The notes beneath the pieces were generated by a model, which worked only from the letters and a program-made list of their open reading frames with translations, was not told the DNA's origin and did not search any database. A DNA stretch of 39,825 nt. Source: Nannocystaceae bacterium (GTDB taxonomy: Bacteria; Myxococcota_A; Polyangia; Nannocystales; Nannocystaceae). This document shows positions 2,243 to 33,819 of the stretch, one piece after another; positions within the stretch are counted from its first letter, which is position 1; every line of letters starts with the position of its first letter. Position numbers and translations under genes: made by a program. The stretch lies in assembly GCA_041389865.1 (NCBI GenBank), contig JAWKRA010000044.1, positions 1 to 39,825 of the forward strand, given 5' to 3'.

Positions 2243-4360
2243 TTACGCGTCGCCTTCGAGCGCGTAGACGCGGCCCTCCCCCGATCGCATGCCAGCGAAC
2301 ACGCGCGCGCCATCGCTGCGCAGCACCACGCTGGTGATGCTCTCCCCGAGCTCGACCCTCGCCAGCGCGCCCCCGCTCGAGAGCTGCGCGACGACGACCG
2401 CATGGTCCTCGGTCCAGGCGACGCGATCGGCCGCGCTTGCGACCGACAGGTGCATCGCCCCGAAGGGTAGATCGAGCAGCTTCGTCGGCGCGCCGTCGGG
2501 GTCGACGCGCGCGAGCCAGCTGCGCGTCTCGTGGTCCGAGCTCCTCCAGTCGAGGTCATCGGGGTCGACGTAGATGCGCACGTCGTCAAACCCCAGACGC
2601 TTCAGTCGCTTGGTGACGCGCGCGATCGCTACGCCCTCGTGAACGCCGACGATCGAGAAGTCGTCGCCGAGCTTCCACGTTCGCAGCAGCGCGCCGGTCC
2701 GCGGATCGAGGAGCGCGAGCTCGCCGCTCTCTCGCCCGGAGTGGGTCAAGAGGCGCCCGTCGGCGAGCGGGTGGAGCGAGTCAAACGACGCGGACCACTG
2801 CCACTTGGGGGCCGGCTGCGACGCGTGCGTCCACAGCAGCTCGCCCGCCGCCGACCACCCCTGGAGGTGCGTGACGCTGTCGTTCTCGCCGCTCCACGGG
2901 GCGTCCACGCCGCGGACGCTGAAGTAGCCGATCGAGACCACGACGTCGCCGACGATCGCGAGCTTCGAGATCTGGCAGGTCTTCGTCGCGCCCGACGACA
3001 CGCGCTCGCCGTCGAGGCTCCAGCGCTGGATCGTGCCGCCGCCGAACGGGCCGACGAGCAGCGAGTCACCGGCGAAGACGAGCGCGCCGACCTGGTGCTT
3101 GCGCGCCGACGCATCCTGGTGGTGGAGCTCGCGGATCAGCGCGCCCGTGGCCGCATCCCACAGGCAGACGCACGGGGGCCGCTCGTGGTGCGTGGTCGCG
3201 AGGAGCGCGCCGTCGCTCGAGAACGCGAACGGCTTGTGATTGGGCTCAGGGTAGCGATCCAGGCAGGCGCGCGGCGCCCCCGTGTCGAAGTCCCACAGGC
3301 GGATGACCGCGTCGCTGTCGGCCGTCGCCACGAGCGCGTCCCCGGGCGCCGCCGTGGCCTCCGACGCGCTGCCGAGGTGGCGCGGCGCCGGCTGCCAGCC
3401 CGCGGTCGGCATCACCCACACCGCTCCCTTCGCCCCGCCGACGAGGACGCGATCGCCGTGGAGGCACAGCGCCGTCACGCCGCCCGCCGGCGCCTTGCAG
3501 CGGAGCACGACGGCGCTCAGATCGCTCGTCATCCCGCGGAGCTCGGAGTGTGTCCCAAAGAACACGCGCGTGGCGTCGCGCGCCATGGCCTGAACCCCCC
3601 ACGCGAAGTCGTCGAGGCGGCCGAGCTCGGCTCGCGCGGGGAAGTCCCACACGATGACGTCGTCGGCCGCGGTCACGAGCCGGCGCGCGTCGAGGAACTG
3701 CATCGCCTGCGGCGCCTGCCCGGCGTGGCCCTTGCCGCTCGTGTTCCGCCCGCCGATGAACAAGCGCCCGAGGCCCAGGTGGCGGACCCAGGACGTGCCC
3801 GTATAGACAGGTTCGACGGCCTTCATGCGCTTGAGGTCCCAGACCAGCACGCGGTGCTCGATCGAGGCCGAGACCGCGTAGCGACCGCAGGGGCTGACGG
3901 TGACGGCCTGGATCACCTCGCCGTGGCCCTCGAGCGCGCCGCGGAGCCGACCGTTGGCCATCGACCACACGCGGACGATCCCGTCGTCGCACGCGCTGAT
4001 GACGTACTCGTCGGTGAGCGCGACCCGGCGCACGTAGCCCTCGTGTCCGCGGAGGACGAACATCGGCTCGACCCCCGCGCGCAGGCTCCACACCCGCGCG
4101 GTCCTGTCGTCGCCAGCCGAGGCCATGAACGCGCCGTGGACCGCGAGGTGATTGACGGGGCCGCTGTGGCCCTCGAGCTCGCGCACGAGCGCTCCCGAGT
4201 CGATCTCCCACAGGAGCACCCGTCCGCCCTCGTCGCTCGAGAGCGCGTGCTCGCCGTCGGGGTGGACGACGATCGCGTGGACGTGCGCCGAGTGGAGCGC
4301 CAGGCGCCGCCACTGGGGCGTCGGCGCGGCGGGGTTTCGATCGACTCGCACGAGCTCCAT
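2243..4360 (-). CDS. WD40-repeat protein, probably a double beta-propeller (705 aa)
   Basis: There are repeated G-H...(V/I)WD/L units, for example 'VLLWEIDSGALVRELEGHSGPVNHL', 'DDRTARVWSL', 'DDGIVRVWSM' and 'HRVLVWDL'. The C-terminal half has further 'IRLWDF' and 'CVCLWDA' units. The ATG at 4358-4360 opens the frame. Confidence 0.8.
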   Translation of the reverse strand: MELVRVDRNPAAPTPQWRRLALHSAHVHAIVVHPDGEHALSSDEGGRVLLWEIDSGALVRELEGHSGPVNHLAVHGAFMASAGDDRTARVWSLRAGVEPMFVLRGHEGYVRRVALTDEYVISACDDGIVRVWSMANGRLRGALEGHGEVIQAVTVSPCGRYAVSASIEHRVLVWDLKRMKAVEPVYTGTSWVRHLGLGRLFIGGRNTSGKGHAGQAPQAMQFLDARRLVTAADDVIVWDFPARAELGRLDDFAWGVQAMARDATRVFFGTHSELRGMTSDLSAVVLRCKAPAGGVTALCLHGDRVLVGGAKGAVWVMPTAGWQPAPRHLGSASEATAAPGDALVATADSDAVIRLWDFDTGAPRACLDRYPEPNHKPFAFSSDGALLATTHHERPPCVCLWDAATGALIRELHHQDASARKHQVGALVFAGDSLLVGPFGGGTIQRWSLDGERVSSGATKTCQISKLAIVGDVVVSIGYFSVRGVDAPWSGENDSVTHLQGWSAAGELLWTHASQPAPKWQWSASFDSLHPLADGRLLTHSGRESGELALLDPRTGALLRTWKLGDDFSIVGVHEGVAIARVTKRLKRLGFDDVRIYVDPDDLDWRSSDHETRSWLARVDPDGAPTKLLDLPFGAMHLSVASAADRVAWTEDHAVVVAQLSSGGALARVELGESITSVVLRSDGARVFAGMRSGEGRVYALEGDA

Positions 4361-4496: not shown

Positions 4497-5108
4497 CTAC
4501 AGGTCGCAGGCTATCGACAGCGAGAAGGGCGCCGCGCCGATCGGGTCACCTGTCGTTGAGTTCAGGTCGTACTTAAGGAAATCCGGGCAGTCGAGGTCGA
4601 AGTCGACGCGGGCCGCGGACAGCTCGCGCACCGTCAGCGCGCAGGTCGCCTCGCTCGCTTCATCGTGCGGGAACCCGTAGGAGAAGTTCGACGAGCCGTC
4701 GGGATCGGTCTTGAAGAAGAACCCGAAGACCGGCGCGTCGGCGTCGTCGCGACCGAACGTGTAGTCGCCCGGATCGAGCCAGCGGACCCCGAAGCTGAAG
4801 GCGTAGTCGCCGACGTTGAACAAGATCGAGTTCTGCTGCTCGGCCGCGATCGCGCTGCAGAAGCCGATCGGCCCGCTGTCGTCGGTGCTCGAGAACGTGC
4901 CGCTCGCGGGGAGGTCTGGCTCGCCGCCGATCTCGAGGCTGAAGGTCCCGTCGATCGACTCGACATCCTGGGTCGGGTCGTCGAGCGTCGGGTCGCCGGG
5001 CCCAGGCCCAGGCCCCGGGATGATGCAGGCCGTCTGCGTGGTGACGGCGAGCATCGCTGCCGCCGCGGTGAAGCGGGCGCGCGCGCCCCTGCGGTGTGTA
5101 CCTGTCAT
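4497..5108 (-). CDS. small secreted lipoprotein, hypothetical (203 aa)
   Basis: An internal ATG at 5106-5108 is preceded by a GGAG-containing stretch (cgagaggagcgaag). It gives the N-terminus MTGTHRRGARARFTAAAAMLAVTTQTAC, which has an n-region, an h-region and a Cys. A PGPGPGPGDP linker follows. The ORF-track start at 5510 would add 134 Arg/Pro-rich residues and looks spurious. Confidence 0.55.
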   Translation of the reverse strand: MTGTHRRGARARFTAAAAMLAVTTQTACIIPGPGPGPGDPTLDDPTQDVESIDGTFSLEIGGEPDLPASGTFSSTDDSGPIGFCSAIAAEQQNSILFNVGDYAFSFGVRWLDPGDYTFGRDDADAPVFGFFFKTDPDGSSNFSYGFPHDEASEATCALTVRELSAARVDFDLDCPDFLKYDLNSTTGDPIGAAPFSLSIACDL

Positions 5109-5623
5109 GCTTCGCTCCTCTCGCGGCCGCTGCCGAGGCGGCCGAGGGCGGGTCCCTGTCTTCGCGGCGGGGAGGCCCCTCGTTTCGTCGGAGATGGTGA
5201 CGGGCGAGCAGGCTGGTCCACGCCTTAAAGCCGGCTTAAACCGCCGAGAGGCGCCGAGGGCCGCGAGGCGCTCACGCGGGGCGAGGCCGCGCGCGGGGCC
5301 GCGCCGCGTTTTGGGTGTCTTAAGGGGAAGGTCGCGGCGGCTCGCGTCGGGGCGCCACCACGGTCGCGCGCGAGGCTGCGCCGACGGGTCGGCGCGCGAG
5401 CGCCTCGCGAGGCGACATCGCGCGAACGGCCGATCGCTTGCATCGGCACACAGTGCGCCACGCCGCTCGCGATCGTCGACCTCACGGACTCCGGGCGACT
5501 CCGGCAGCACCTCGAGGCGCTCCGATGACGTGGGGTCGAATCGATGGGCCCAACGACAAACGACCGCGCGCGCCAGGAGGACGCGCGCGGTCGTCTTGAA
5601 CGGCGCCGGGGCGCCGCGTCGCG

Positions 5624-7438
<1,815 letters not shown>

Positions 7439-7869
7439 GAAGAACCCCCTTCCGCGCACGGTACCGCAGATCTGCCCCCTGGGTCGTCGCCCCCTGAACG
7501 TGAGTCACCGCGCGATCCGAGCAGAGCTGACCTGACCCTAAGAGCTGCTGACGTCCGCGGGGATCCCCGCGCCGTGGGGTCGTGCTGACGCGCTCGACCC
7601 CAAGGGCGGCGGCCTAGCAGCCCGTGGACATAGTCCCCACGCCACCTCGCGGGTCCTCTCGGCCGAAGGCCGTGGCGCCCATAGGCTCGCTACCGCTGCG
7701 ATCTGGCTCCTACCTCTCGGGGTGAGAAGCCGGGCGAGGCGACGCGCGGACTTCATCCACGGGCTGCTGGCGGCGTGCGGCGTGCGGCCACGCCCATCGC
7801 ATCGGGGGGAAACCCCACATCGTGGGCGCTCGTCGTGGAGCGGTCACGTGCGCAGGCGTACCATCGCTC

Positions 7870-8418
7870 ATGCTCGCGATCTGCGTACGCGCGTCCGTGT
7901 TGGTGCTCGCGCTCCCTTCGCTGGCCTGCGGGCCCGGTGACGAGCCGACGGTGACGACCACCGGCGGCAGCGACACCGCGGCGACGAGCGGGTCGGAGGC
8001 GACCTCGGAGAGCGGCGACGGGACGTCGACGACGACCTCCGCGAGCACGAGCGGCGCGACCGAGAGCACGGGATCAACCGACGCGACCGAGACGGCGGAG
8101 ACGACCGAAGCGACGAGCGACGAGCCCAGCCCCGATCTCCCGCCTGAGGTGACCTGCGAGCCGCACATCTACTTCAAGTGCGAGGTGCCCGTCGACTGCG
8201 GGGCGAACGGGTGCGACGACGACCCCAAGAGCCCGTTTGATGCGAATGGTTGCATGCGCCCCGCCTGCCCCGGGGACGTGTGCCCGCCAGGGACCGTGTG
8301 CAAGGCCTGGAACACCGGGTTTGGGGACTACAGCTGCAGCGAGATCGCCGGTCATTGCTACTGCGGTGGCGACCCCGTGCCGGGCGATGTCACCTTCAAG
8401 CTGTGCTTCCCGCGGTGA
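7870..8418 (+). CDS. secreted Cys-rich lipoprotein (182 aa)
   Basis: Starting at the ATG at 7870 gives MLAICVRASVLVLALPSLACGPG, a lipobox-type signal. A Thr/Ser/Glu-rich linker follows, then a 90-aa C-terminal domain with about 14 Cys. The ORF-track start at 7822 is a GTG and adds 16 residues. Confidence 0.55.
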   Translation: MLAICVRASVLVLALPSLACGPGDEPTVTTTGGSDTAATSGSEATSESGDGTSTTTSASTSGATESTGSTDATETAETTEATSDEPSPDLPPEVTCEPHIYFKCEVPVDCGANGCDDDPKSPFDANGCMRPACPGDVCPPGTVCKAWNTGFGDYSCSEIAGHCYCGGDPVPGDVTFKLCFPR

Positions 8419-28194: not shown

Positions 28195-28387
28195 GCCGTG
28201 AAGAGTGGCACGCCACCTGCATGGAACGACGCTATCGTGACAGGCCGGTCCTGAGATTGACTTGTGAAGCCGTTGTAGATCCCATCATGCAGATTTCGTC
28301 CTGTGCGTGATCAACGGAGTTTCGTCGCGCAGGAACGAACCTTGATTCCAGGCGCAAAACTGCTGTTCCTCGAGCCCGAGCGGCGTC

Positions 28388-29161
28388 CTACTCCGGCACC
28401 GCTTGACCGATGCACATGCGGCAGCTCACGCCACCGCTGGCGGTGATCGAAGGCTGCAAAACGCCGTGCTCCGCGAGCTGTGCTTCGACCGCGTCGAGCT
28501 GGCTCACGTCGAGCTGCGGCACCAGGCGTCGGGGATCGTCGCCGCGGCGCCGAGCGAGGGCCGCGAGCCCGTAGACGGTGGGGTAGAAGGCCGTGACCCG
28601 CAGGGTGCGGCTGTGCCGGCAGATCAGGGTCGGCGTCGGGGCGCGCTCCGGGGGCGGCGTCGCCGGATCGGTGAGCGCCTGGGCGTACTCCGGGATCTTG
28701 CAGCTGGCCGCCTGGCGGACGAAGACGCGGTGGTCGAGGCCGTCGGGGAGCGTCCCGGCGGGCAGCTCGTCGCTGGCGACGTGGGCTAGAAGCGCAGCCA
28801 GTAGTAGTCCGCGATCTCCTCCCAGAGCGGCTCGATGCGCGGATCGCTCTGGCGGCATGGGCCCGGGTAGTCGGAGAACGGCGCGGCGAAGGTGTTAGGG
28901 TTGCGGGCGGTGGCCGGGTGGGCGTCGCTGAAGTCGTCGACGAAGCCGGTCCCACAGCAGCGCGCAGGTGGGTGATCCGCGCGCACAGGGCCGAACGCTC
29001 CGGCGCAGGATTTTGTCCATGTTGCGGCGGATCAGCACCCGGTAGAAGGCGACCCGCCGGACCCCGGACGGGCTCTCGCCGAGCGCGGCCTGGAAGGTGG
29101 CGACGTCGGTCTCGCCGGAGAGCAGGCGGCGCGCTTCGTGGAAGAACGCCGCGAGGCTCAC
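28388..29161 (-). pseudogene. DUF2063-family partner of the DUF692/MNIO enzyme (MbnC/HvfC/BufC-like), as it reads here interrupted by two +1 frameshifts
   Basis: The GTG at 29159-29161 overlaps the DUF692 stop as GTGA. Frame A reads 'VSLAAFFHEARRLLSGETDVATFQAALGESPSGVRRVAFYRVLIRRNMDKILRR...' (DUF2063-like N-terminus, compare 'RFAVYRNNV'). High-GC3 coding then continues in the +1 frame ('TGFVDDFSDAHPATARNPNTFAAPFSDYPGP...LWEEIADYYWLRF') and again in the next +1 frame ('AHVASDELPAGTLPDGLDHRVFVRQAASCKIPEYAQAL...CRMCIGQAVPE*'). The frame switches fall near short homopolymer runs (tggg at about 28950; gccc at about 28785). These could be real, giving a pseudogene, or assembly indels. Confidence 0.5.
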
Positions 29162-30012
29162 ACGGCCACCTCCGCGCGGACCGCATCGCGGACGGCGTAC
29201 CCCGCCGCGACCTCGCGCGCCCGATCGAGCTGGTCGAGGACCGTGTCGAGGTCGGGGATGTCGGTGTCCCACTCGAGCAGGGTCGGCGGGACCTCGCCGA
29301 GCCGCTCGATCGTCGCCCGGTACAGCCCCCAGACGCCGTCGCAGACCGGGGCGCCGTGGTTGTCGATGTACATGTCGCGCTCGACGATGTAGCCGGCGAG
29401 GTGGACCTGGCGGGTGCGCTCGACCGGGAGCGCGGCGAGGGCCGCGAACGGGTCCTGCTGGAAGTTGTGGGCGTTGACCTGGACGTTGTTGACGTCGAGC
29501 AGCAGGCCGCAGTCCGCCTCCTCGAGCACGGCGGTGATGAACGCCTCCTCGCTCATCGTGCCGCCCGGCATGATCGCGTAGTAGGAGATGTTCTCGAGCG
29601 CGAGCGGCCGCTCCATCCGATCGGCGAGCTCGCGGGCGCGCGCGGCCACGTGGCGCACGGCCTCCTCGGTGCGCGGCAGCGGCAGCAGGTCGTGGAAGCG
29701 TCGGCCGTCGATGGCCGCGTAGCACAGGTGATCGGTGAAGTAGGGCGGGTCGAGGTAGTCGAGCAGCGCCTTGAGCCCCTTGAGGTGCTCGGGATCAAAG
29801 GGATCGGGGCCGCCGACCGAGGTCGAGACGCCGTGCGAGACCACCGGCCAGCGCTCGCGCACCCGGGCCAGGATGTCGCGCTGCAGGCCGCCGTAGCCGA
29901 CGTAGTTCTCCGGGATGATCTCGAACCAGTCGATCGCGCGCGGGGTCGTGAAGACATCCCGGTAGTGGGGTCTTCGCAGACCGATCCCGAAGCCAGCAGG
30001 CGCGCGCTGCAT
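29158..30012 (-). CDS. DUF692 family enzyme (MbnB/TglH/ChrH/BufB-type multinuclear non-heme iron oxidative enzyme, MNIO; TIM-barrel fold)
   Basis: 'GFGIGLRRPHYRDVFTTPRAIDWFEIIPENYVGYGG' is the DUF692 N-terminal signature. 'HGVSTSVGGPDPFD', 'DHLCYAA', 'LALENISYY', 'CGLLLDVNNVQVNAHN' and 'VHLAGY...IDNHGAPV' match conserved blocks of MbnB-like proteins. The ATG at 30010-30012 gives MQRAPAGFGIGLR. The GTG at 30114 is the ORF-track alternative; it adds a Pro/Arg-rich 34 aa and is less likely. Confidence 0.88.
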   Translation of the reverse strand: MQRAPAGFGIGLRRPHYRDVFTTPRAIDWFEIIPENYVGYGGLQRDILARVRERWPVVSHGVSTSVGGPDPFDPEHLKGLKALLDYLDPPYFTDHLCYAAIDGRRFHDLLPLPRTEEAVRHVAARARELADRMERPLALENISYYAIMPGGTMSEEAFITAVLEEADCGLLLDVNNVQVNAHNFQQDPFAALAALPVERTRQVHLAGYIVERDMYIDNHGAPVCDGVWGLYRATIERLGEVPPTLLEWDTDIPDLDTVLDQLDRAREVAAGYAVRDAVRAEVAV

Positions 30013-30132
30013 AAGAGAGACGATAACACGCTGTGGTCGCGCCCACGGCTCGCAGGGGAGCGGAGATCGCGGGTCACGACGAGGCGGCGCGGGCCCCTGC
30101 GGACCCGCGCTCACCTACGTTGTCACAGCTCG

Positions 30133-30750
30133 TCAGCAGGTCGGGGCCGCGTCGATGCACGCCGAGTAGTCGGCGCCGCCGTCGCCACACTCGCCCATGA
30201 CGCACTCGAGCAGGCCCATGTTGACCTCGGCCTGGTTGTCGCAGACCTCGGTGATCTCGTTGCACTTCGACTCGCAGTCGGCGACGCCGTCCGGGTCGAG
30301 GAGCTCGCACTCGCCCATCTTGCTGCACCCGTCGAGGCAGACCTGGATGGTCTCCATGAGCAGGGCGCCGTCGGTGTCGGTGCTCGGGCAGCCCGTGGTC
30401 GGGCAGGCGGTCGTCGGGCAGCCCGTGGTCGGGCAGGCGGTCGTCGGGCAGGCGGTCGTCGGACAGCCAGTCGTCGGACAGCCGGTCGTCGGACAGCCGG
30501 CGGTCGGGCACGCTGCGGTTGGGCAGCCAGCGGTCGGACATCCGGCGGTCGGGCAGCCCGTGGTCGGGCAGCCGGCGGTGGTGCCTGTCTCGGTGGTCGG
30601 ACAGCCGGCGGTCGGGCAGCCAGCGCTGGCGGTGTCGGTCGTCTCGGTGTCGGTGCCGCTCTCGGTCGTGTTCTTGTCGTCGCCGCAGCCAGCGACGACC
30701 GTCGCGGTGAGAGCCGCCGCCGCGAGTATCGAATCCAGGTTTTTGAGCAT
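30133..30750 (-). CDS. Cys-repeat lipoprotein immediately upstream of DUF692; candidate Sec-exported RiPP-type precursor/substrate (205 aa)
   Basis: The ATG at 30748-30750 has GAGG 9 nt upstream. The signal MLKNLDSILAAAALTATVVAGCGDD has a VAGC lipobox. It is followed by about 16 tandem (A/T)GCPT(T/A) units ('AGCPTAGCPTTETGTTAGCPTTGCPTAGCPTAGCPTAACPTAGCPTTGCPTTGCPTTACPTTACPTTGCPTTACPTTGCPS'). A 75-aa Cys-rich tail follows ('CLDGCSKMGECELLDPDGVADCESKCNEITEVCDNQ...'). The ORF-track version (398 aa) has an Arg-rich spurious N-terminus. Confidence 0.75.
   Translation of the reverse strand: MLKNLDSILAAAALTATVVAGCGDDKNTTESGTDTETTDTASAGCPTAGCPTTETGTTAGCPTTGCPTAGCPTAGCPTAACPTAGCPTTGCPTTGCPTTACPTTACPTTGCPTTACPTTGCPSTDTDGALLMETIQVCLDGCSKMGECELLDPDGVADCESKCNEITEVCDNQAEVNMGLLECVMGECGDGGADYSACIDAAPTC
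30385..30620. repeat. 15-nt tandem DNA repeats (ggtcgggcagSCSgt) encoding the GCPT(T/A) pentapeptide array
   Basis: Direct reading shows gggcagcccgtggtcgggcaggcggtcgtcgggcagcccgtggtcgggcaggcggtcgtc... with a 15-nt period over about 235 nt. Confidence 0.75.
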
Positions 30751-30914
30751 GACGCTATCCTCGCGAGGTCGGGGGGGGTGAACGACGACGAGCCCTCGCT
30801 GTCTCGTCGCGTCGTCCAGGGTACCCGGTCTGTGCGGGCAATGCGAGTCGGCCGTGGAGTCGGCGGGTTCCCCCGCGATCCACGCTGCGCACCGCAGGTG
30901 TCCCTTTCGCCAGC

Positions 30915-31979
30915 TCAGTCGAGCTCGACCTCGGCGCACGGCGTCAGCGCGTCCGCGAACGCGTTGAGGCCGGCTTCGTCGAGTCGCTCCAGCAAGTACG
31001 CGCGCGCTCGACACAGATCGCGAGCGCGTGGCTCTCCTTCGGCCAGCGACGCCGCGAGGTCGAAGATGGCGATCGGCACGCCGCGATCCGGGCACTGCGG
31101 AGGCGCGCTCGCGTGCGCGCCCGGGAGCGCCGGCGCGTCGCCGCAGCGATGGGTGATGGCGGGGTCCTTGAGGTTGAGGTCGTGTCGCCGATAGTCCTCG
31201 ATCGGCGCGCGATCGCGGAGCACGGTCTCGATCGTGTAGAGCCCGCTGGCGTCCGTGGCCCGGTGCACAGGACCCTTGGCGTGCAGCGTCTCGGCCTCGG
31301 CCAGCCGCGGCGTGTGGCACGGCGCGCACTGATTGATGCCGCGAAACCGCCGTTCGAACGCCTCACGCTGGGTGGGCTTCATGTTCTTGACCTGCTCGGT
31401 GGTCGCCAGGAACTCGAGCATCCGACGCGTGACCTCGGCCTGCTGCTCGGGATCGCCGCGATCCCACTCAAAGCCGCGCAGGCGGGCGTTGGGCTGGGCC
31501 TGCTCGGGTCGCAGCACGCGGAAGCGCTCGCGGCCGTCGGGACCAAACACGGTGCCGCGCACGTCGGCGATCTGGCGGCGCGGGCCGTGGCCGAGGAACT
31601 CGATGCGATCGGCGTGGGTCCCCTGCGGGTAGCGCAGGGTGTGGCGTTTCTGGTCAGGGAGATACTCGGTCGTGATCACGCCGCCTTCGGGGATCTTGAT
31701 CCAGATCTCGATCTGCTCGAGGACGGGGCTCGTCGACGGCAGCCGTGCGGGCGGGATCATTCGAATGTAGCCGGCGTCGCGCCAGAACGACTCGGGATCC
31801 TCCACAGAGATCTCGACGATGCCTCGGGCGGTGCCCGAGAGATCCGCGCGCTCCGCCTCGGGCGCGGGTGGAGCTTCGGGCGCGCGCGCGGTGATCCACC
31901 AGACGGCGACGCCGAGGCCGAGCGCCACGATCGCGACGAACAGCCAGCGGGTGCGACTCGTGCGGGAGGCGTCCGCCAT
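30915..31979 (-). CDS. membrane-anchored protein with a single CxxCH motif (possible c-type haem site), hypothetical, 354 aa
   Basis: The ATG is at 31977-31979. The N-terminal TM helix is 'WLFVAIVALGLGVAVWWI'. 'INQCAPCHTPRL' is a CxxCH motif, and further Cys are at 'HRCGD' and 'PQCPD'. The gene is co-directional with, and 52 bp downstream of, the P460-like gene. Confidence 0.5.
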   Translation of the reverse strand: MADASRTSRTRWLFVAIVALGLGVAVWWITARAPEAPPAPEAERADLSGTARGIVEISVEDPESFWRDAGYIRMIPPARLPSTSPVLEQIEIWIKIPEGGVITTEYLPDQKRHTLRYPQGTHADRIEFLGHGPRRQIADVRGTVFGPDGRERFRVLRPEQAQPNARLRGFEWDRGDPEQQAEVTRRMLEFLATTEQVKNMKPTQREAFERRFRGINQCAPCHTPRLAEAETLHAKGPVHRATDASGLYTIETVLRDRAPIEDYRRHDLNLKDPAITHRCGDAPALPGAHASAPPQCPDRGVPIAIFDLAASLAEGEPRARDLCRARAYLLERLDEAGLNAFADALTPCAEVELD

Positions 31980-32031
31980 GCGACTCTCGCTTGATAGCGA
32001 GGGCCGGGCGCGAACGCCAGCCCGAAACCTG

Positions 32032-32634
32032 TCAGGGGACCTGATCGGCGGCGTCGATGCCTCTCGCCCAGTCCGACGGCGCGGCCGGCATGTGGCAGCT
32101 GATGCAGAAATCGGCGGCGGGCGCGGTCCCCTTGACCGGCGTGGTGCCGTCCTCGTAGACGCGCGCCCACCACCAGTCGCCGGTGTCGGGCGCGTAGCCG
32201 GGCGGGCCCTTGTGCATCACCGTCCAGCCGCCAGGCATGGTGGCCTCGGCGTCGGCCCAGTGGCGCTTGATGAGCGTCGTGCCGACCGGGAACGTGATCG
32301 GCTGGTAGTCCATGGGATCGATCATCTTGTAGGTGGCGAGCACGTCCGGCGGCACCCAGATGTCGACGACCATCGCCATGTCGCCGTGCTGGCTGGCGAG
32401 CGGCGCGTTGTTGGCCTTGGTGAATTTTCCCTGATCGAAGTTCATCACGTCATCGAGGACCGCGTCCTCATCAACTTCGGCGGCCGTGGTCTCGGTCTCC
32501 GAGCCCGTCTCCGAGCCTGACTCGGTGGCGTCGGTGGTGCCGGCGGTCGTGTCATCGGTGCCCGAGGTGGTGTCGCCGCAGGCCGCGAGCGTTAGGATGA
32601 GGAGTGAGCGGTGGAGAACGTGCGCGTGTTGCAT
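32032..32634 (-). CDS. cytochrome P460 / cytochrome c'-beta family-like haem lipoprotein (201 aa)
   Basis: The ATG at 32632-32634 gives MQHAHVLHRSLLILTLAACGD with an LAAC lipobox. 'FPVGTTLIKRHW', 'GYAPDTGDWWWARVYEDG' and the C-terminal 'FCISCHMP' (CxxCH near the C-terminus) resemble the cytochrome P460 layout ('GTVTVKE…', 'GNWAFY…', 'C-A-A-CH'). The family call is from memory. Confidence 0.55.
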   Translation of the reverse strand: MQHAHVLHRSLLILTLAACGDTTSGTDDTTAGTTDATESGSETGSETETTAAEVDEDAVLDDVMNFDQGKFTKANNAPLASQHGDMAMVVDIWVPPDVLATYKMIDPMDYQPITFPVGTTLIKRHWADAEATMPGGWTVMHKGPPGYAPDTGDWWWARVYEDGTTPVKGTAPAADFCISCHMPAAPSDWARGIDAADQVP

Positions 32635-32724
32635 GCCGTGTCGATCCCTTGTGGTCGGTGGATGTTCCCACGAACGACGCGGCGGTCGTGATCGTTTCGC
32701 GCGGCGGAGCGCGCCTGACAGATC

Positions 32725-33195
32725 GTGGCGATCGAGCGTACACTCGCGCGCGTGGCTCAGCTCGGCAGCATCTTCGACGACGACGCGGCCGATGACGGCC
32801 CGCGCGGCCGCGATCTGCGGACCGAGGTGACGATTCCGGCCTGGTCGATGGGACACCCCGACGGCTACGCGGTGGCCGTGCCGATCGAGCTGCCGATCGA
32901 CGACGAGACCGCCCACCGCACCCCGTCTCCGCATGATGACGGTGAGCACATCACGCTGCGGCTCCCCGAGAGCTTCCCGGACGGAGGGACGCTGCGGCTG
33001 CGCGGGCAGGGCGAGCGCGGGCCGACCGGGCGCGTCGGCGATCTGCTGGTGACCGTGCGCATCGACGAGACCGACGCGATCGCGCGGGTGTTGCCGAGCT
33101 CGCTCGCCCAGTCCAGCAGCCCCAACAAGACCGTGATCATCGGCGTGACCGTCGCGCTCGCGGCCCTGGCGGCCGCGGTCTACGCGGCGCTTTGA
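32725..33195 (+). CDS. DnaJ C-terminal-domain-like protein with a C-terminal TM helix (no J domain), 156 aa
   Basis: 'DLRTEVTIPAWSMGHPDGYAVAVPIEL' and 'ITLRLPESFPDGGTLRLRGQGERGPTGRVGDLLVTVRID' follow the two CTD motifs of DnaJ/CbpA ('…G..LRL.GKG…GDLYV.V.V'). The C-terminal 'VIIGVTVALAALAAAVYAAL' is hydrophobic. The start is a GTG. Confidence 0.4.
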   Translation: MAIERTLARVAQLGSIFDDDAADDGPRGRDLRTEVTIPAWSMGHPDGYAVAVPIELPIDDETAHRTPSPHDDGEHITLRLPESFPDGGTLRLRGQGERGPTGRVGDLLVTVRIDETDAIARVLPSSLAQSSSPNKTVIIGVTVALAALAAAVYAAL

Positions 33196-33270
33196 AGACC
33201 CTAAGAAGGCGCTCGCCGGCCAGAGGAGGCGCCCCCCCAGGAATCCTCCTCCGGCCGGCGAGGGCTCGCG

Positions 33271-33819
33271 CTACTCGGGCGCCAACGGGCACTCGAGGGC
33301 CTCGAGCGGCTCACATCCCACAAGCCAGCTCGTCGTGTCGAGGCAGCTCGAGTCGTAGTCCGCGAGGCACTTCACAAATTGCTCGGCCGGCGCGAGGGTG
33401 CACAGGCTCGGCGGGTTGGCCCACTCGCCGACCCCGTCGCCCGCGCCGTAGGCCTGCCGAAGCACGCGGCCATCACCGAGGAGCAGGAGGTCGACGTTGC
33501 TCGACGAGCGATCGAAGTCGGTGACGGTCTGCAGGAGGCCCGCGTCCCCGGCGGCGAGCGCCCCGAGCACGCAGCGGGCGGTCTCGTCGTAGCTGAATTC
33601 GGCGTCCGCGGACGGCGACTCCGCGACCGGGAGCGCGTCGCACGGCACCGCAGCCTCGCAGTGGAGCAGCAGCGTCGGCGTGAACGGCGGGTCCTCGGCC
33701 TCAGCCTGGTCGTCGACGCCGTTGTCCTCGATCGAGCTGTCGAGGAGCGCCCCGCCGGGCGTGTCACAGCCCACGGTGAGGAGCGAGCCGACCAGGAGCA
33801 GCGCGGACAAGCGAAGCAT
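33271..33819 (-). CDS. lipoprotein, hypothetical (182 aa)
   Basis: The signal MLRLSALLLVGSLLTVGCDT has an LTVGC lipobox. The mature part has 8 Cys. GC3 is high. Confidence 0.55.
   Translation of the reverse strand: MLRLSALLLVGSLLTVGCDTPGGALLDSSIEDNGVDDQAEAEDPPFTPTLLLHCEAAVPCDALPVAESPSADAEFSYDETARCVLGALAAGDAGLLQTVTDFDRSSSNVDLLLLGDGRVLRQAYGAGDGVGEWANPPSLCTLAPAEQFVKCLADYDSSCLDTTSWLVGCEPLEALECPLAPE

Follow-up and report, generated by a model that had tools for sequence, protein, structure and literature searches.

The DNA analysed here (the window) is an entire contig of 39,825 bp from a metagenome-assembled genome (MAG) of a Nannocystaceae bacterium (NCBI locus tags R3A51_107xx; G+C ~70%), and at positions 28388-32634 it carries a putative maturation cluster in which an MNIO (DUF692) enzyme and its DUF2063 partner accompany a Cys-rich repeat lipoprotein and two proteins with CxxCH motifs. 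In the order of transcription, all on the minus strand, the genes encode a cytochrome P460-family lipoprotein of 200 aa (32032..32634), a membrane-anchored CxxCH protein of 354 aa that we call TMcyt (30915..31979), the repeat lipoprotein of 205 aa, which is the putative precursor and substrate (30133..30750), the MNIO of 284 aa (29158..30012), and the DUF2063/PME1-type partner (28388..29161). The five co-directional genes of the original prediction are all present, but alignment with homologues reveals that the DUF2063 gene is not an intact open reading frame (ORF) in the window. For comparison we used L086, a contig of a second MAG (GCA_020431275.1) that is 99.1% identical to the window over 9.9 kb and carries every gene of the cluster, including an intact DUF2063 gene.

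The MNIO matches the Pfam family PF05114 (MbnB_TglH_ChrH) over its full length (profile positions 2-262 of 263) with 318.3 bits against a cutoff of 25 (E=4.5e-95), in agreement with its earlier designation as a clear DUF692 enzyme. Nine residues (H60, H95, E140, D173, N176, H204, D217, H219 and E247, A1 numbering) are invariant among 26 sequences, with a spacing that we take to be that of the iron ligands of MbnB. Among the NCBIfam models the enzyme scores best with BufB (NF050167, 301.5 bits), close to but short of the equivalog cutoff of 310, followed by HvfB (NF003818, 264.9 bits; cutoff 360, not reached), ApyH (102 bits), MbnB (48.5 bits) and ChrH (NF050165, 37.9 bits; cutoff 600, not reached), so that by score its nearest maturases are BufB and HvfB. 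The best database relatives share 66% identity and are Myxococcota without exception. As predicted, the stop codon of the MNIO gene overlaps the GTG start of the DUF2063 gene as GTGA (29158..29161). Profile searches identify the partner as DUF2063/HvfC-like in L086 and in relatives: the intact proteins of L086 (243 aa) and of the related locus L008 pass the Pfam DUF2063 cutoff of 27.2 with 31.6 and 34.4 bits, respectively, while the L086 protein scores 47 bits with HvfC (NF050145), below the equivalog cutoff of 142. In the window itself the reading frame assumed for the partner at 28388..29161 is disrupted.

The gene for the putative precursor lies 120 nt upstream of the MNIO gene and starts at the ATG at 30750, preceded by GAGGA, rather than inside the ORF; NCBI names the product a hypothetical protein. 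It begins with the N-terminal box MLKNLDSILAAA, followed by a lipobox (VAGC), 15 (G/A)-C-P units and a 10-Cys C-terminal domain, giving 26 Cys in 205 aa, so the lipoprotein with a tandem GCPT array and a Cys-rich tail described in the earlier note is real. A pattern check places the lipobox (VVAG-C) at residues 18-22 behind an uncharged h-region and finds equivalents in every relative compared; checked by eye, it fits the PROSITE-type lipobox pattern PS51257. Thirteen of the 15 Cys-Pro sites are spaced at 5 residues, and Tandem Repeats Finder reports the underlying array at 30378..30621 (period 15 bp, 16.1 copies, 78% matches, score 230). The remaining 10 Cys fall in the C-terminal ~75 residues (30136..30360; C-x3-C-x5-C-x10-C-x3-C ... 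C-x4-C), a tail that is confined to the window, L086, L003 and L008 and matches no Pfam family even at E<=10 and no NCBIfam family even at E<=1. The sole four substitutions between the window and L086 in this gene (30439..30457) all fall in the repeat array as paired C/G swaps, a pattern that would fit either a shuffling of repeat units or their collapse during assembly. Within the 120-nt gap to the MNIO gene a GC-rich hairpin follows the precursor stop codon (30087..30110; RNA fold z-score -4.0, with none of 200 shuffles folding as well), and relatives have GC-rich hairpins in the same position, with U-runs behind those of L011, L012 and L017. Such terminator-like hairpins behind the precursor gene are usual for precursors of ribosomally made, post-translationally modified peptides (RiPPs), and this one is possibly an attenuator.

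To see which features of the array are conserved we compared 20 precursors from different species, with 161 Cys-Pro sites in total. Gly occupies position -1 in 148 sites and Ala position -2 in 122, and position +2 is G, T or A; the repeats read [T/E]-A-G-C-P-[G/T]. The number of units per precursor ranges from 2 to 15 and the Cys-to-Cys distance between units from 4 to 15 residues, yet repeat-region Cys without a following Pro occur in only 2 of the 20 precursors (L052, with two, and L025, with one at its C-terminal end). As the G-C-P motif is fixed while its spacing is free, the alignment indicates selection on a recognition or reaction site rather than on a structural period. The N-terminal box (M-x-K/R-x-L-x-x-I/V-L-E/A) is found in 24 of 25 repeat-bearing proteins, P460 proteins with repeats included, and in none of 12 repeat-less P460 lipoproteins; the pattern was derived from the same sequence set and is thus descriptive only. 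Our hypothesis is that the box may serve as a leader for modification; bufferins, for their part, can be modified without the signal peptide (PMC11626156).

To determine how far the gene set recurs, an alignment of the closest MNIOs was used to scan one genome per GTDB species, yielding 80 loci, and further loci were added via exact-protein look-up and a metagenome scan; gene presence was called by tblastn, ORF extraction and profile searches. In a neighbour-joining tree of 86 MNIOs all loci with these genes form one clade of 28, all Myxococcota. All 25 clade loci with sequence upstream of the MNIO carry TMcyt; among the full 28, a P460-like gene occurs in 22 and a repeat lipoprotein, a Cys-rich precursor with an export signal beside the MNIO, in 24. 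None of the three was found at any of the 58 MNIO loci outside the clade. The association thus belongs to a monophyletic Myxococcota group and is not peculiar to the window, so that the earlier note stands against its own refuting condition of a window-specific pairing. No DoxX, sigma or anti-sigma gene was seen in the six loci with Pfam tables, in line with the earlier claim that haem proteins stand here where known systems have those genes; the two CxxCH proteins are conserved partners. The usual gene order in the clade is CxxCH protein, repeat lipoprotein, MNIO, DUF2063 and P460; the window and its closest relatives instead have P460 at the front. Carriers include the cultured strains Enhygromyxa salina DSM 15201 (L016) and Paraliomyxa miuraensis SMH-27-4 (L010), which opens the cluster to experiment. 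In two clade loci, L001 and L005, TMcyt (4906..5970) precedes an MNIO that begins at 6001; the surrounding 6-8 kb contain no P460 gene, the DUF2063 gene is followed by one for 100 aa, and a TetR regulator lies upstream.

The sister clade of MNIOs (Archangium, Myxococcus, Cystobacter) adjoins signal-peptide proteins or lipoproteins with oxazolin-like EKGxExxC(K/G)G repeats. In seven loci (L019, L023, L024, L028, L041, L027 and L034; Archangium, Myxococcus, Cystobacter and one Planctomycetota MAG) the MNIO is preceded by lipoproteins or signal-peptide proteins whose repeats include EKGxExxCKG, SSCSGDK and GGDKSCSGDKK, all oxazolin-like and several with lipoboxes. These genes lie upstream of the MNIO at about 7300-7970 (in L034 at 1665-1901), and their products match the HvfA or BufA2 models only weakly.

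The first gene of the cluster, at 32032..32634, passes the Pfam model Cytochrome_P460 (PF16694) with 34.6 bits against a cutoff of 27 and is named 'cytochrome P460 family protein' by NCBI. The protein combines a lipobox (LAAC), an acidic Thr/Glu-rich Cys-free linker and a P460 domain with a CISCH motif, as expected for the P460-like lipoprotein first proposed. Residues C177, C180, H181 and K123 are invariant in 14 homologues, and the Lys, which lies in the sequence L-V-K-E-H, corresponds in the alignment to the Lys in the '...ILVK...' strand of M. capsulatus P460. Eight of the nine PDB sequence matches of the profile are of the P460 or cytochrome c'-beta type, all of them weak (E 0.05-1.2). 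In two loci (L050 and L091) a single lipoprotein consists of 6-7 GGCPT units followed by the P460-like domain, and in two others (L003 and L008) the linker of the P460 lipoprotein contains three AGCPG units in addition to a separate precursor; none of the repeat-less P460 lipoproteins had Cys in its linker. Of the evidence that repeats and P460 domain may act together, these fusions are the strongest. In L090, by comparison, an acidic D-x-x-D repeat linker replaces the Cys-Pro units of the P460-like lipoprotein, and a DM13-domain lipoprotein (3037..3450) follows the DUF2063 gene in this one clade member.

TMcyt has no match in Pfam or NCBIfam, though the N-terminal hydrophobic helix and the CxxCH motif (CAPCH) foreseen for it were found. 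Across 19 sequences C218, C221 and H222 are invariant and four further Cys are conserved, but the alignment contains no second invariant His or Met; depending on the species, the N-terminus is a transmembrane helix or a lipobox. The AlphaFold2 model is that of a confidently folded 300-residue domain (pLDDT 86.5, pTM 0.80). An exhaustive hidden Markov model (HMM) search of 1.84 billion proteins returned 358 cluster representatives at E<=1e-3, compared with 4 and 11 proteins from word-indexed protein searches and 3 loci from a metagenome scan with a 7-sequence alignment. One homologue (L089, 3300..4205) is flanked by a GMC-type oxidoreductase and an O-antigen-ligase-like membrane protein on a 6.5-kb contig that holds no MNIO, so MNIO clusters are not the only setting of the family. 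TMcyt is putatively a single-haem c-type protein of an uncharacterised family, and from their conserved motifs we infer that both it and the P460 protein would bind haem.

The original prediction regarded the cluster as an undescribed kind of system, and this view has to be given up, as Sec-exported multi-core and lipidated MNIO-DUF2063 systems have been published (PMC12452194, PMC13097082, PMC13056109). The general design, an MNIO and a DUF2063 protein with an exported multi-Cys repeat substrate and lipoprotein variants, is thus in the literature. Among the substrates of MNIO-DUF2063 pairs, Sec-exported multi-core Cys repeats occur in oxazolin/Buf_EGKCG, with up to 58 Cys (PMC12452194), and in fontiphorin and the captophorins (PMC13097082), and lipidation of lipobox-bearing forms has been shown experimentally for the DAG-RiPPs, lipo-NedA among them (PMC13056109). 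Every characterised MNIO-PME1 pair makes 5-thiooxazoles on Sec-exported, Cys-rich, copper-binding substrates, for which captophorins has become the collective name (PMC13097082; PMC11626156; 10.64898/2026.06.05.730506). Of prior censuses, one counted 22 Nannocystales MNIO-PME1 clusters and described none of them, and large ones list unclassified precursors with signal peptides by the hundred, carrying up to 15 Cys, without describing the family. Genuinely new against the literature that we searched are a core motif of A-G-C-P, the pairing with P460 and CxxCH proteins, and the fusions of repeats with P460. In the papers and supplements searched there is no mention of the motif, of a cytochrome P460 or of a TMcyt-type CxxCH protein in MNIO clusters, nor do the papers link P460 to RiPP-type maturation; the supplements of PMC12452194, PMC12636315 and PMC13097082 give taxon counts only and no GCPT, GCPG or AGCPT sequences, and such precursors may sit there unnamed.

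With the repeat-type captophorins, namely the oxazolin, fontiphorin and gonophorin systems (HvfA, FonA; HvfBC, FonBC), the cluster shares the MNIO, the DUF2063/PME1 partner and a multi-core substrate in which an export signal precedes many short tandem units, each with one Cys after a small residue; HvfB of the oxazolin system is a closely related MNIO (265 bits), and EK..C-type repeats occur in the sister clade. In contrast to oxazolin-type clusters, the core here is A-G-C-P-[T/G] instead of E-G-K-C-G, with no Lys, with Pro after Cys and in units of 4-15 residues, DoxX is replaced by the P460 and CxxCH proteins, and the hosts are Myxococcota instead of Pseudomonadota; the HvfA model (NF050188) matches neither the window protein nor six relatives, which lack the E-G-K-C-G motif. 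The bufferins (BufA1/DUF2282, BufA2; BufBC) are similar in that BufB is the top enzyme model and in the DUF2063 partner, the Sec export and the targeting of Cys, and ~16% of Buf2 precursors bear lipoprotein signals (PMC12452194), but each of their precursors is a small folded domain in which 4 or 6 Cys are conserved, whereas ours are disordered repeats without a BufA HMM match. The DAG-RiPPs (lipo-DybA, lipo-NedA; PMC13056109) likewise have a lipobox on an MNIO substrate and a product that enters the lipoprotein pathway, but those characterised are of the ChrH type (CPACGMG) or the EGKCG type. 'Cluster X' of the same study, a set of uncharacterised lipoproteins that share a CxxxxC motif (PMC13056109), possibly overlaps with the Cys-Pro repeat family; the 205-aa window protein lies outside that set because of its length filter of 50-160 aa. 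The 'CxxxxC' signal-peptide family of Antoine et al. 2025 (PMC12452194) resembles ours in its Cys spacing and its adjacent MNIO and DUF2063 genes, but it contains DoxX, and Lactamase_B_2 in 54%, neither of which is seen here, and our spacing is not fixed at four residues. Finally, the P460 protein passes the Pfam model of the cytochrome P460/cytochrome c'-beta family and keeps its CxxCH and invariant Lys, but differs from that family in being lipid-anchored, in lying in an MNIO cluster and in its occasional fusion to Cys-Pro repeats.

Taken together, we consider the cluster to be, with moderate confidence, a lineage-specific member of the 'captophorin-like' MNIO-PME1 (DUF692-DUF2063) maturation systems, with the multi-Cys lipoprotein as the likely multi-core substrate, as was first suggested. 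In such a model the MNIO, guided by its DUF2063 partner, would act on the repeat lipoprotein in the cytoplasm, where the N-terminal box would probably be signal peptide and recognition sequence at once. The Cys of each [T/E]-A-G-C-P-[T/G] unit would be oxidised by four electrons (-4 Da per site), most likely to a 5-thiooxazole that uses the carbonyl of the preceding Gly. The modified protein would then be exported by Sec, lipidated at the lipobox Cys and retained at the membrane as a flexible chain of ~15 thiolate-bearing heterocycles that could bind copper or another soft metal, with the P460 lipoprotein and the CxxCH protein as its membrane-tethered periplasmic redox partners in the place that DoxX occupies in bufferin and oxazolin clusters. 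We infer a lipid-anchored poly-thiooxazole chain because the enzyme is nearest to BufB and HvfB and all characterised MNIO-DUF2063 pairs make 5-thiooxazoles. A 5-thiooxazole retains the peptide bond from Cys C1 to N(i+1) (10.64898/2026.06.05.730506), and Pro at position +1 should therefore be chemically acceptable.

Several observations weigh against this interpretation. The MNIO stays below the BufB and HvfB cutoffs and the partner below that of HvfC, the TMcyt model has no significant fold match, and so none that would support a cytochrome, which leaves CxxCH as the case for haem in this protein, and TMcyt also occurs without an MNIO (L089). Three clade loci with upstream sequence (L001, L005 and L090) have TMcyt directly upstream of the MNIO, and DUF2063, with no repeat ORF within the 6-8 kb examined; the gene for their substrate may lie elsewhere, or the CxxCH protein may itself be the substrate. 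Neither a copper-homeostasis gene nor a regulator was found in the 39.8-kb window. Moreover, FonBC, the sole MNIO-PME1 pair tried on variant substrates, accepts Pro at no repeat position and requires Gly or Ala after Cys (PMC13097082), so the invariant Cys-Pro is a real departure from FonBC-type substrates, the window clade must have another way of recognising its substrate, and may make another product. The last point against it is the disrupted DUF2063 gene of the window. An in-frame TAA (28895..28897) interrupts 28388..29161, the middle of the gene (~29003..28788) lies in other frames, several frame changes are needed to align it with intact homologues, and NCBI annotates a fragment (28388..28858) alone. 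If the gene were truly a pseudogene, the system would be dead in the source organism and the lipoprotein made unmodified, and the spread of the gene over three reading frames, together with the fragmentary annotation, is what this would look like. However, 68 of the 89 alignment columns that differ between the window and L086 are packed into 879 bp (28125..29003), mostly as 1-3-nt indels of which there are dozens, and these also throw the ATG of the next gene, which encodes a choice-of-anchor-L protein, out of frame, whereas the remaining ~9 kb contain 21 differences and no indel within any gene. As neutral decay at the background divergence would yield 2-3 changes in 879 bp and cannot produce such clustering, a local assembly or polishing fault in the MAG seems the likeliest explanation, and we regard a genuine pseudogene as unlikely.

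The departure at Cys-Pro also leaves some room, though we think not much, for the same genes to carry out a chemistry other than 5-thiooxazole formation, such as an inter-unit cross-link or a ChrH-like rearrangement, the product of which would not be a captophorin. The intolerance of FonBC for Pro and its need for a small residue after Cys (PMC13097082) would fit this, as would the MNIO scores under the BufB and HvfB equivalog cutoffs and the presence of Cys-Pro in ChrH-family substrates, the chryseobasin motif being CPACGMG (PMC13056109). Yet the enzyme is far nearer to BufB (301 bits) than to ChrH, MbnB or ApyH, the DUF2063 partner has so far been linked to thiooxazole formation, and a unit spacing of 4-15 residues speaks against a fixed inter-unit cross-link. 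It is less probable still that the true or primary substrate is TMcyt or the P460 protein and that the Cys-Pro repeats are a lineage-typical linker. TMcyt is the most constant neighbour of the MNIO (25 of 25), its stop codon overlaps the MNIO start in L090 and L091 and lies 30 nt from it in L001 and L005, its conserved C296 often precedes Pro, and L001, L005 and L090 lack a repeat ORF; but L091 does have repeats, within its P460 fusion, and TMcyt is modelled as a confidently folded 300-residue domain and occurs without an MNIO, while related MNIOs act on disordered Cys repeats. A mere linker would also be hard to reconcile with a G-C-P that stays fixed despite variable spacing and with the Cys-free linkers of repeat-less P460 proteins. 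We can see very little chance, finally, that the lipoprotein belongs to a separate system as a RiPP precursor of the CefA or 'Cys-every-fifth' type (NCBIfam NF038108). That model scores 35.2 bits on the window protein (cutoff 30) and 32.4 bits on its L035 relative, but the alignment is limited to model positions 10-59 of 65, i.e. the repeat part, relatives with 7-10-residue periods give no match (3 of 6 relatives), a member with ten perfect TAGCP units reaches only 21.8 bits, and the term is absent from the literature searched. We therefore rejected CefA membership as an artefact of periodicity.

If the Cys-Pro units are indeed modified, the substrate range of thiooxazole-forming MNIOs would extend to a motif that FonBC rejects, and the clade would offer a natural test case for the determinants of MNIO substrate specificity. 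Pro after Cys removes the amide N-H and thereby constrains the possible chemistry. The constant pairing with a P460 protein and a new CxxCH protein, together with the P460 fusions, points to a redox partner for these metal-binding products and may also shed light on what DoxX does in bufferin and oxazolin clusters. A more speculative extension, to which we give little weight for now, is that the modified Cys-Pro chain, instead of being a free-standing metal sponge, works as a lipid-anchored arm loaded with metal in the service of the cytochrome P460 enzyme, the CxxCH protein being its partner in the membrane. Such a chain could deliver or withhold copper, or relay electrons; RiPP-type chemistry would then build a prosthetic tether for a periplasmic redox enzyme, with arm and enzyme forming a single polypeptide in some lineages.

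Scans of 27900..33300 for sigma-70 promoters and simple terminators were uninformative. Divergent from the cluster, and sharing a ~90-nt promoter region with the P460 gene, a plus-strand gene (32725..33195) encodes a 156-aa protein with a hydrophobic C-terminus and a weak match to the DnaJ C-terminal domain (25.6 bits, just under the cutoff). On the other side, the choice-of-anchor-L gene (27019..28194) and a TerB gene (26269..26838) were not counted as part of the system because their synteny is limited to the closest relatives L003, L008 and L086. Just downstream of TerB, on the minus strand (23271..25997), lies a gene for a 908-aa protein that matches domains of eukaryote-type major vault protein (MVP_shoulder with 36.5 bits, above its cutoff; Vault_3 and Vault_4 below theirs), and the sister contig L086 has the same gene, there of 902 aa.

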